Below are positions 12,001 through 15,000 of a DNA stretch of 16,302 bases, one piece after another. The first letter of the stretch is position 1, and each line of letters begins with the position of its first letter. Source of the stretch: a virus. The DNA is taken from UHGV virus genome UHGV-0148496, one strand, 5' to 3'. A program made the position numbers.

Positions 12001-15000
12001 TGGGTTAATGAAAAGTACACGCGCTGGGTTAAGACGCAGCCGTGTGCATGTTGTGGAAAGCCTGCTGATGATCCCCACCACCTGATAGGCCACGGTCAGG
12101 GGGGAATGGGTACAAAAGCGCATGACCTCTTCGTGCTGCCTTTGTGCAGAAAGCATCACGACGAGCTGCATGCGGATACCGTGGCATTTGAAGAGAAGTA
12201 TGGCTCCCAGCTGGAGCTGATATTTCGTTTTATCGATCGTGCGCTGGCAATAGGCGTGCTGGCCTGATTTTGTGGAGAAAGTTGATGCGTGATATTCAAA
12301 TGGTTCTTGAACGTTGGGGGGCATGGGTGGCAAATAATCACGAGGATGTGGAATGGTCATCTGTTGCTGCAGGTTTTAAGGGATTAATTCCTTCGAAAGT
12401 AAAATCCCGCCCGCAATGTAGCGATGACGATGGCCTGATCATTAGCTCTGCGATGACAGTTCTTAAGAAAAAGGAACCGTATCAATACGAATTACTGGAA
12501 ATGTATTATGTGTATGGGGTTACATTACGGGTGTTGGGGGTAAAACTGGGGATATCACTTAATCAGGTTGTTATCAGACTGCAGAAAGCTGAAGGGTTTA
12601 TTGACGGTTGTCTGGCAATGTTGGGGGTATCTTTAGAAATTGATTGTTACATATAGTAATAAATTCAATCAAAGTAAATAATCATATTTTATTATAACCT
12701 CCTGATGATACCTGTTCATTGGGAGGTTATTATGGATAAAAATGTAGAGCATGTATTAGTTGATGCAATTGAAAATAAGCAATCTTTAACAGTCGTTTAC
12801 TTAGGAGGGAGCCAGCCCGGAACATTAAGGAATATTTCTCCGATTAGTATAAATGGGGATAAATTGCGGGCAAGATGCCATAGTTCTGGAGCAGTAAAGG
12901 TTTTCAATCTTGGGAAAATACAGTTACCCAGTGACTCCTGCGCGGTATCTATGCACTATGGAGATTTAGAAGTTAAAGCTTATGAGACGATGCAGAGCGT
13001 AAATGACAACTTTCATGCCCTTTATCCTGAAGGACGATGGGGTGTTGATTTTAATGAGCATCGCTTTGCTTTATTTGATTTTTTTAAAAACGGGAAACGA
13101 AAAAAAACGGCATTTATGGCAATTGAGTTCAGGGAAAGAGATGAAGAGAAAATAATAACAGGTGTAACAATTGATATTGGTATATCTGGAACAGTGATTT
13201 CTGAGAAGTCCCGAATCCCAAAAAGACGACCATGGGTAGTGGTTGGTCCCGAACACGGAGAATACAGTACTTATTCAACTTTGGACAAGGCTGCTACAGC
13301 GTTTTTTGAGAGGCTTTCGTTGATAGCATCCGGCCTGGAAGATAATTGATTTTATGTTTGGTATTCAGAGTTCGCCGTGCTTAAGAAAGTCAAGATTCTA
13401 AAAATACTGAATGAGCTACTTGTGTTATAACAAAAATGCTATTAGTGTGTTAAGAGTGGTTACTTCGCCACACAACTTAAACCCGCCACTGAGCGGGTTT
13501 TTTGTACCTGTAAACTTGGTGCAGTACAGTAAACACGCTGGTGGTCGTGAATACTGGCTTTTTATCTTGCTGGCTTTTTAGACAAGAGTTATTGGTATGT
13601 CACGTTAACCGGAAAGGGTAAAAAGACATGCTGAAACAGCAGGATATGACAGAAACCGCCAGAGTTGTGTTTGATGAATTAAGCGTTACCGAACCGGCGA
13701 CAGTCGGGGAGATTGCGCAGAATACTTACCTTTCACGCGAACGCTGCCAGTTAATACTGACCCAGCTTGTTATGGCGGGTCTGGCAGACTATCAGTGCGG
13801 TTGTTACAGACGCCTTCAGTCCTGAAGGCTTTTTATTTGTGGTGAATGGGCGGCTGGTGGGGGGGCGACACCTGTCAGTCCTTTGCTTATGTGTTGATGA
13901 TAATTTACCTTTGGGGGCTATAATTGAGCTAACCAATTGCTAATGAAAGTAAAATTATAATGGCTGTTGTCTGTTCAGTTATCATGGTTTGCTCCCCAAT
14001 TAATATTTTTCTTGAAAAGGATACGTTGTCACTTAAGCCAGGCTCAGTTGTTCTGGCCACCAAATGCATCAGGGAGCTTTTCCTTATGCATTATGGCAAA
14101 GTTAAAATTGTCGATATAAGCGAATCCGTCGTAAGTCAATATCTGGAAAGTCAGCATAAGCTGACGAGGACTCGTCTGACTGACATTCCGCTTTACCTGT
14201 TGCTGGAACCCAACAATCCTGCGTTGGCTGCGGCTTTAATTACCAGCCAGGGATTTTCCGGAGAGGCCACGGATATGTTTCTTATGATGGCCTGCCTGTC
14301 TCTGTTTGAAACAGATGAACGGATGTCATTGTTTTTAAGTGGATGTTTATCCAGCATAAGTGCCAAAGTCAGGGCGATAATTCAGACAGATATATCAGCA
14401 AGCTGGACGCTTGGTGCGATTGCTCTACAGTTGCATATGAGTGAGAGTTTGTTAAAGACAAAACTGAAAAATGAAGGGGGCATGTTCAGTCGCTTGTTGC
14501 TGGAAGAGCGGATGCGTGTTGCTGTAAATATGTTATGTTCCCGGCATGGATATGGACAGGCTATAGCAGAAAAATGCGGTTATTCAAGCAGGTCCTACTT
14601 TATTTCTGTATTTCACCGCTATTATGGCTTCCCGCCAGACAGATATGTATCCAGGCAAGGGCTTGATTATTGATTTTCATCTGATTATTATTTTTTGGCT
14701 CGGCCCTTTAGCTCAGTGGTGAGAGCGAGCGACTCATAATCGCCAGGTCGCTGGTTCAAATCCAGCAAGGGCCACCATCACATACCGCCATTAGCTCATC
14801 AGGAAAGAGCGCCAGCCTTCGAAGCTGGTTGCGCGGGGTTCAAGTCCCCGATGGCGGTCCATTATCTGCATCATGCGTTGTTAGCTCAGCCGGACAGAGC
14901 AATTGCCTTCTAAGCAATCGGTCACTGGTTCGAATCCAGTACAACGCGCCACACTTATTTTCCCTGGCTCGCTTTTGTGGGCCTTTTTTTTAAATGTCTC

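Follow-up and report, generated by a model that had tools for sequence, protein, structure and literature searches.

What kind of gene sits directly behind the antiterminator gene Q of a lambdoid prophage, is it a self-contained unit of cargo, and what could its product do? We considered these questions for an open reading frame (ORF) at positions 12732-13349 of the virus genome UHGV-0148496, of which the whole stretch of 16,302 nucleotides was analyzed and is referred to below as the window. The ORF is a genuine accessory cargo gene, which is under purifying selection and was horizontally acquired in the slot after Q. As for its product, the reading we favor as a whole, with a probability of roughly 40%, is that of a two-domain WYL protein devoid of helix-turn-helix (HTH) and WCX domains, which would serve as a single-stranded DNA (ssDNA)-gated sensor-adaptor in conflicts between mobile elements and their hosts and would be encoded by the last gene of the early-right operon. 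Among the ligand sensors of bacterial immune operons, WYL domains are the most common, and, to our knowledge, they have so far been understood only as the effector-binding part of ssDNA-responsive HTH transcription factors. A family that holds the ssDNA-contact residues, lacks the DNA-binding and dimerization domains and carries an added domain suggests a different route from an ssDNA signal to action. The E. coli member is, moreover, readily testable, being one gene of 618 bp that is found in prophages of extraintestinal pathogenic E. coli strains with sequenced genomes, such as S88. The ORF and the parts of its product are as follows.

12732..13349, plus strand: ORF of 205 amino acids (aa), encoding a 23-kDa protein; matches phrog_8498; RefSeq names are 'hypothetical' or 'WYL domain-containing protein'
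12732..12929, plus strand: WYL (Sm-like beta-barrel) domain, aa 1-66; signature Y23-x-GGS-x-PG-xx-R33 ... ARC ... K56-x-F58-xxx-K62
12930..12986, plus strand: flexible linker, aa 67-85; predicted local distance difference test (pLDDT) score of ~55, and below 50 at residues 69-73
12987..13346, plus strand: C-terminal alpha/beta-sandwich domain, aa 86-205; FKNGKxxK and RPW motifs, variable loop at ~134-167

The gene and its protein product

A sequence-only reading of the window had proposed a 205-aa ORF that looked AT-richer than the phage backbone by eye, and both points are confirmed. The ORF begins 5 nt downstream of the Shine-Dalgarno sequence GGGAGG (12721-12726), and its GC content is 39.6%, with 32% at third codon positions, against 48.5% for the whole window. 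A 214-aa form starting from the ATG at 12705 would have 9 extra residues, which are found in no homolog. The intergenic segment between Q and the ORF (IG1, 12657-12731) contains 25% GC, the lowest-GC stretch of 618 nt in the window begins at 12561, and the trough sets in at ~12400, already within Q. When the ORF was compared with a 73%-identical variant from other E. coli prophages, the ratio of nonsynonymous to synonymous substitution rates (dN/dS) was 0.22 at a dS of 0.83, and considered by part, it was 0.14 for the N domain, 0.23 for the C domain and 0.79 for the linker. With an overall ratio of this size, the ORF should be regarded as a functional coding gene. One could instead suppose that the frame arose by chance or is in decay and that it accompanies the Q allele without a function, as it is annotated as hypothetical, has no evident promoter of its own and has a sequestered Shine-Dalgarno sequence. 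Such an explanation is at odds with the dN/dS value, with the 954 family clusters and their invariant residues and with the confident predicted structure, and we consider it highly improbable.

The size of the family became apparent only upon an exhaustive profile search, a word-indexed homolog search having returned only 9 proteins. At 50% clustering, the profile search yielded 954 representatives, and 191 of these matched at E<=1e-30. Among the best 150 of the 954 representatives, most are 187-226 aa long and nearly all are full-length matches.

The AlphaFold2 model, built from an alignment of 121 sequences, has a pLDDT of 86 and presents an Sm-like five-stranded beta-barrel preceded by a helix, as found in the WYL domain (PF13280). 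The family profile matches the WYL domain of DriD with an E value of 2.4e-5, and 43 of the 121 relatives match Pfam WYL at E<0.01 (best 4.8e-8). In the hidden Markov model alignment, the family motif YxGGSxPGxxR corresponds to 'YEGGSTPGRTR' in DriD, such that Y168, S172 and R178 of DriD are placed at Y23, S27 and R33, respectively. These three DriD residues form hydrogen bonds with the backbone of the ssDNA (PMC9186387). All 121 aligned sequences have Y23, G26, R33 and K56, S27 is invariant or nearly so, and F58 and K62 are nearly invariant. The proposal that the N-terminal ~70 residues follow a WYL-like pattern is thus upheld by profile and structure alike, at the level of the family.

Several observations nonetheless weigh against this assignment and should be considered when referring to it. 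The protein itself scores 16.5 bits against Pfam WYL (PF13280), below the cut-off of 21.8, and WYL membership therefore rests on family-level and structural evidence. The equivalent of DriD R176 is not conserved, being A, T or S in the family. The W-Y-L tripeptide is absent, with A47-R48-C49 found at that strand, although the motif is degenerate (NYL) in DriD too (PMC9186387). Finally, K56 and F58, together with K62, probably correspond to the R204/W206 strand of DriD, as placed through the Pfam WYL alignment, so that this half of the pocket is mapped by inference.

No HTH was found in Pfam or NCBIfam searches, the barrel beginning at residue 19 after a single helix, and a WCX dimerization domain was likewise not found. 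Sequence searches with the protein (Pfam, NCBIfam, PADLOC, PHROGs and PDB) returned only the sub-threshold WYL match and PHROG families with no assigned function, and a Foldseek comparison with viral structures gave no match at E<=1e-3. The C-terminal ~130 aa, which the earlier reading could not recognize, thus stayed unrecognized in these searches, and no clear match to a housekeeping or structural family, or to any other characterized one, emerged for the protein. Conserved positions in the C-terminal domain are W103, K119, G121, P167, A187 and F191, with W168 lying within the RPW consensus motif. Judging from the alignment, the conserved residues of this domain appear basic or aromatic and not catalytic-looking, with no invariant acidic or histidine residues. 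Read from sequence and predicted fold, what is new in this family is a WYL barrel that keeps ssDNA-type contacts, without HTH and WCX, and that is joined to a new C-terminal domain; the WYL sensor family as such is known. No published characterization of the family came up in our literature search (by accession, locus tag, PHROG identifier, hotspots adjacent to Q and phage WYL proteins that stand alone).

The acquired module in the slot after Q

The ORF belongs to a larger unit, which includes part of the preceding gene.

12285..12656, plus strand: Q antiterminator gene, 123 aa, Q21 family; Pfam Phage_antitermQ at 1.3e-47
12445..13448: AT-rich mosaic module made up of the 3' part of Q, IG1, the WYL ORF, the second intergenic segment (IG2) and a Q-type-specific promoter-like element; GC 0.36-0.39, as compared with 0.45-0.57 in the flanks

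The Q of the window matches the phage 21 Q structures 6P18/6JNX with an E value of 5.6e-10. The ORF is carried by 51-52 of 5426 complete E. coli genomes, all of which have this Q allele, and the whole of 12285-12760 is matched by 52 E. coli genomes. For the other ~257 E. coli genomes that match Q, the rows sampled align to no more than the first 135-162 nt of Q. As these non-carriers match only the 5' part of Q, the acquired module is taken to begin inside Q, at ~12445. By these alignments, the module takes in the region for the predicted HTH of Q and ends at ~13448, such that the 3' two-thirds of Q travel with the ORF. A recombination junction can be placed inside Q at 12419-12446, the first 135-162 nt of the gene being common to many E. 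coli prophages at 85-92% identity. The rest of Q, which encodes the HTH, is allele-specific, and in this prophage it is linked to the WYL ORF.

A second version of the module, with 84% nucleotide identity, is found in the IMG/VR contigs L051-L055 and L058 and is collinear (DUF968, Q, ORF, terminator, winged HTH). In relatives, the slot is either empty or filled otherwise. It is empty in phages 1720a-02 and PhiR5_1, where the block running from GTTAAGAGTGGTTACTTCGCC to the terminator starts 38 nt past the Q stop codon. PhiR40_1 contains a 148-aa ORF with no assigned function on the opposite strand (L003:2036-2482, minus), and phiSTEC1575-Stx2k contains a 141-aa ORF of phrog_4748 (L075:698-1123, plus), both unrelated to the WYL ORF. 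The suggestion that cargo is held in the slot after Q is hence well founded, and two marks of an autonomous moron, namely atypical composition and presence/absence polymorphism, are found for the ORF. The ORF also marks the junction between Q and the late promoter PR' of Stx-like phages as a place for cargo, separate from the classical slot downstream of PR'.

The stretch 12600-13520 is 100% identical to DNA of E. coli S88 and of at least ~20 other genomes among the matches listed. In S88, the integration site of the prophage copy adjoins a tRNA-Arg gene beside folD, and the element that hosts the ORF is an argU-integrated lambdoid prophage, as in that strain.

Transcription and translation of the ORF

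The canonical Q cassette consists of the Q gene, PR' with a Q-binding element (QBE) between -35 and -10, a sigma-dependent pause element and a terminator (10.1101/651190, PMC6606751). The elements considered with respect to the position of PR' relative to the ORF are the following.

12688..12736, plus strand: RNA hairpin over the Shine-Dalgarno sequence (12721-12726) and the AUG (12732-12734); -23 kcal/mol
13420..13448, plus strand: candidate PR' with QBE (TTGTGT, 17 nt, TAGTGT); a conservation island that co-varies with the HTH type of Q
13449..13478, plus strand: backbone leader GTTAAGAGTGGTTACTTCGCCACACAACTT, near-invariant and interpreted as the PR' initial transcribed region; its counterparts in 1720a-02, PhiR40_1, PhiR5_1, phiP27 and Stx2a_1447 are nearly identical
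13479..13503, plus strand: intrinsic terminator of the backbone, candidate tR'; hairpin of -13.8 kcal/mol followed by a U run

The intergenic region 13350-13447 is 55.6% identical between the two versions of the module, except for a perfect island of 17 nt, TTGTGTTATAACAAAAA (13420-13436, 17/17). Adjoining the conserved block is a TAnnnT hexamer, which reads TAGTGT in the window and TAATCT in the variant, and the island occupies its -35 and spacer position. Where another Q allele is present, phages show a differing sequence at exactly the position of 13420-13448, which, in phages without the ORF, comes directly after Q. Relative to the window, the HTH of Q has 89% identity in the variant module, 46% in PhiR40_1 and 26% in 1720a-02, and the upstream element follows the same groupings. 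No other upstream element co-varies with the Q allele, as would be required of a QBE. On the basis of this co-variation, PR' more probably than otherwise lies at ~13420-13448, and TTATAACA was singled out as the stretch to be mutated in order to address the PR'/QBE question. Two findings count against this placement: The candidate is a weak match to the sigma-70 consensus (6/12), and the best score of the position weight matrix (PWM) is obtained by a promoter-like site after the terminator, at 13502-13530 (TTGTAC, 17 nt, TACAGT). The succession of the Q-type-specific element, the conserved leader and the terminator agrees with the arrangement of the canonical cassette, yet the hexamers are weak and no clear pause element was found.

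The site at 13502-13530 was rejected as the Q-responsive promoter, since no co-variation is seen between its spacer and the Q type, although it may still be a real promoter. The spacer exists in two variants, that of the window being the same as in PhiR40_1, and that of the variant module resembling those of 1720a-02 and PhiR5_1. Its -10 element is invariant in five phages, and the site may drive the winged-HTH ORF of 65 aa at 13628-13825. Downstream of it, a -10-like AATACT is seen at 13550-13555, as is a weak terminator-like hairpin (13537-13558) with a T run.

If PR' is located at ~13420-13448, then the ORF lies upstream of it and is probably, going by this arrangement, the last gene of the early-right operon, transcribed together with Q. 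Transcription of the ORF would occur by read-through from that operon, after Q, and without antitermination of RNA polymerase, the mRNA would not extend past the backbone terminator. The terminator consists of a stem (13479-13486 with 13493-13500) followed by the U run, 130 nt past the ORF stop codon. It is conserved in phages without the ORF, where the block is nearly identical, and in SfV a 'putative rho-independent terminator' is annotated ~107 nt after Q. As the block lies 38 nt after Q in ORF-less phages, the terminator is to be assigned to the backbone rather than to the ORF.

These findings bear on the sequence-only reading, according to which PR' lies within 12657-12731 and the ORF is an autonomous moron between PR' and the first late terminator, constitutively transcribed in lysogens and serving lysogenic conversion or anti-phage defense. 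The strong terminator assigned to 13480-13503 does exist, yet it is part of the shared backbone and not the gene's own, so that the idea of a self-contained moron was not sustained, and the Q-co-varying element was found at 13420-13448 and not in IG1. In IG1, no sigma-70 site of at least 9/12 and no acceptable -35 was found upstream of the Shine-Dalgarno sequence, and the sole site scored by the PWM scan (12705-12733) would start transcription inside the ORF. What can be said for such a moron is that the segment is AT-rich and patchily distributed, that a weak -10-like TATTAT (5/6) occurs at 12690-12695, in an A/T-rich stretch, and that relatives elsewhere adjoin repressor genes and occur in defense islands. 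Weighed against the terminator and 30-nt leader in the backbone block, the Q-type-specific element and the sequestered Shine-Dalgarno and AUG, these points leave it a rather improbable explanation of the locus.

The Shine-Dalgarno sequence had also been described as partly hidden in a 9-bp stem, and the structure turned out to be stronger than that. Its stem comprises 15 bp (12694-12708 with 12716-12730) and 5 outer pairs (12688-12692 with 12732-12736), such that both the Shine-Dalgarno sequence and the AUG are paired, and the folding energy of -23 kcal/mol corresponds to a z of -5.45, with none of 200 shuffles being equally stable. Translation may thereby be throttled by the hairpin, in which both initiation signals would be buried. 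The hairpin is retained, with one-sided changes, by the variant module of 84% identity (folding energy of -18.1 kcal/mol, z -3.6) and was not found in distant homologs, so it is a trait of the enterobacterial module only. Inside the hairpin, on the minus strand, a sigma-70 match of 10/12 (TGAACA, 16 nt, TATAAT) is seen at 12718..12691, pointing in antisense orientation into the 3' end of Q. The site is reminiscent of PaQ of lambda and is partly retained in the variant module (TGAACG ... TACTGT). As a promoter candidate it was rejected, promoter-like sites in this region being no commoner than in shuffled sequence.

Family contexts, possible roles and known systems

The distribution of the family is biased towards mobile elements and defense islands. 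This statement refers to ~20 inspected loci, a number that counts against the favored reading; a scan of genome contigs returned only 7 loci. An all-against-all BLASTP comparison of the neighbors at 20 loci revealed no partner gene conserved across the family, the gene always being solo. Recurrent neighbors were found within one group of related phages (L059, L060, L063 and L070), which share Q, replication genes and, above all, a CI-type repressor, and in L006 and L061, where the gene precedes Rha. The CI-type repressor (138-244 aa, with no S24 domain detected) adjoins the gene in all four members of this group. The two genes are co-directional in L059, L060 and L063, with a distance of 14 nt in L063, where the family gene is the downstream one, and convergent in L070. 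In the repressors at L063:7570-7986, L059:5529-5987 and L060:5576-5992 (138-152 aa), only the CI-repressor HTH was detected, which prompts one to ask how induction of these prophages occurs. In Pseudoalteromonas phage PY3 (L086:2006-3115), a 369-aa form, with an extra C-terminal region of ~180 aa of unassigned type, lies between int and a LexA-like repressor and is convergent with the latter.

In other loci, the gene is found beside Mrr-nSTAND3 and an SMC-like ATPase (defense island of L065), beside an OLD-family ATPase-TOPRIM and an HD protein (defense island of L072), in an integrative and conjugative element (L067) and in islands of small uncharacterized genes (L062 and L068). A distant copy is encoded by a 209-kb Dolichospermum phage. 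Fusions (P0127, P0143, P0144, P0090, P0194 and P0179) include N-terminal transmembrane and coiled-coil segments, C-terminal double zinc ribbons with transmembrane helices, and tandem WYL domains.

Based on the retained contact residues, the protein probably senses ssDNA. In the mechanism that we propose, the WYL pocket would bind short ssDNA, or a similar oligonucleotide, irrespective of sequence, and binding would be relayed through the flexible linker to the C-terminal domain, which would act by binding a protein or nucleic-acid partner. Binding is preferred over catalysis for this domain because it contains no invariant acidic or histidine residues. As to the role served, we would place a defense or exclusion sensor-adaptor first, followed by early counter-defense and then by a regulator of induction acting on repressors. 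The positional evidence is divergent in this respect, with the gene lying in an early lytic operon behind a sequestered Shine-Dalgarno sequence in this prophage and beside cI in other phages. A defense role is, moreover, disfavored on three counts, as it agrees poorly with the location of the gene, in a lytic early operon and with no evident promoter of its own, agrees poorly also with a homolog in the 209-kb cyanophage, and finds little in PADLOC-DB 2.0, where no defense model was matched and the only hits were two weak ones (E 0.0014 and 0.0066), to generic models of CRISPR-associated WYL proteins.

The same early lytic position would suit counter-defense, in which short ssDNA, the signal for derepression of WYL-regulated host immune operons of the CapW/BrxR type, would be sequestered by the WYL domain, or the C-terminal domain would inhibit a host factor; we consider this unlikely, though the foremost of the alternatives to the favored reading. 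Slightly less likely still is a regulator of the life cycle, namely a RecA-independent sensor of ssDNA or DNA damage that would act on the phage repressor or another regulator in an antirepressor-like manner. The recurrence of the gene beside repressors (directly after the 138-152-aa CI-type proteins of L059, L060 and L063, and convergent in L070 and PY3), its location upstream of Rha in L006 and L061 and the fact that the WYL factors DriD and PafBC are ssDNA-activated damage sensors would all be accounted for by such a role. In the window, however, the gene is far from the immunity region, relatives are found also in non-phage islands and in an integrative and conjugative element, and no partner co-varies with the gene. 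Returning to the sensor-adaptor, a bolder form of it would make the family the first WYL sensors with a non-transcriptional output, i.e., free-standing ssDNA-gated switches whose C-terminal domain binds a protein target and which are membrane-tethered in some lineages, acting in single-gene abortive or exclusion defense or as RecA-independent damage sensors for prophage induction beside repressors without a detected S24 domain. This we regard as doubtful.

The other genes of the prophage near the ORF are listed below.

10443-11270: KilA-N gene
11272-12267: DUF968/HNH gene
13628-13825: winged-helix ORF, 65 aa
13960-14673: AraC/YdeO-like regulator gene
After the AraC/YdeO-like regulator: three tRNA genes (Met, Arg, Arg), then a DUF1737-SASA esterase gene

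The AraC/YdeO-like regulator and the tRNA-Met, Arg, Arg genes (13960-14948, plus) are shared with phage phiSTEC1575-Stx2k (L075:1681-2672), where this unit lies directly 5' of stx2k, and the prophage's late region has the layout of an Stx phage without the toxin genes. A full-length match to the small RNA family STnc100 (Rfam RF02076; 134.7 bits, 15028-15236, plus) follows the tRNA cluster and precedes the NanS-p-like esterase gene, at approximately the position of stx2k in phiSTEC1575-Stx2k. In the early operon, a match to isrK (6606-6682, 61.6 bits) adjoins one to the C4 antisense RNA (6707-6794, 82.4 bits), both on the plus strand, suggesting antisense control of the P1/P7 type over an antirepressor or Rha region.

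In comparison with known systems, the ORF resembles the lambdoid morons (bor, lom, stx and others of the Q-to-lysis region) in being AT-rich, patchily distributed cargo between backbone genes near Q. It differs from them in that it sits upstream, and not downstream, of the inferred PR', has no demonstrable promoter or terminator of its own and is permanently tied to one Q allele. Transcription factors composed of winged HTH, WYL and WCX domains (DriD, CapW, BrxR and PafBC) share the sensor domain; the window protein, however, lacks the winged HTH and would thus have no direct transcriptional output, lacks WCX, has a C-terminal domain that is unrelated in the fold search and presents A-R-C in place of W-Y-L. 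To WYL1 of Cas13d (PDB 6OAW) the sequence relationship is confined to the barrel, as WYL1 has an added ribbon-helix-helix domain, a CRISPR link and double the length. The folds of frataxin/CyaY and PsiB recall the C-terminal domain, yet with identities of 8-14%, no common motif and scores typical of generic resemblance, the likeness justifies no functional inference.

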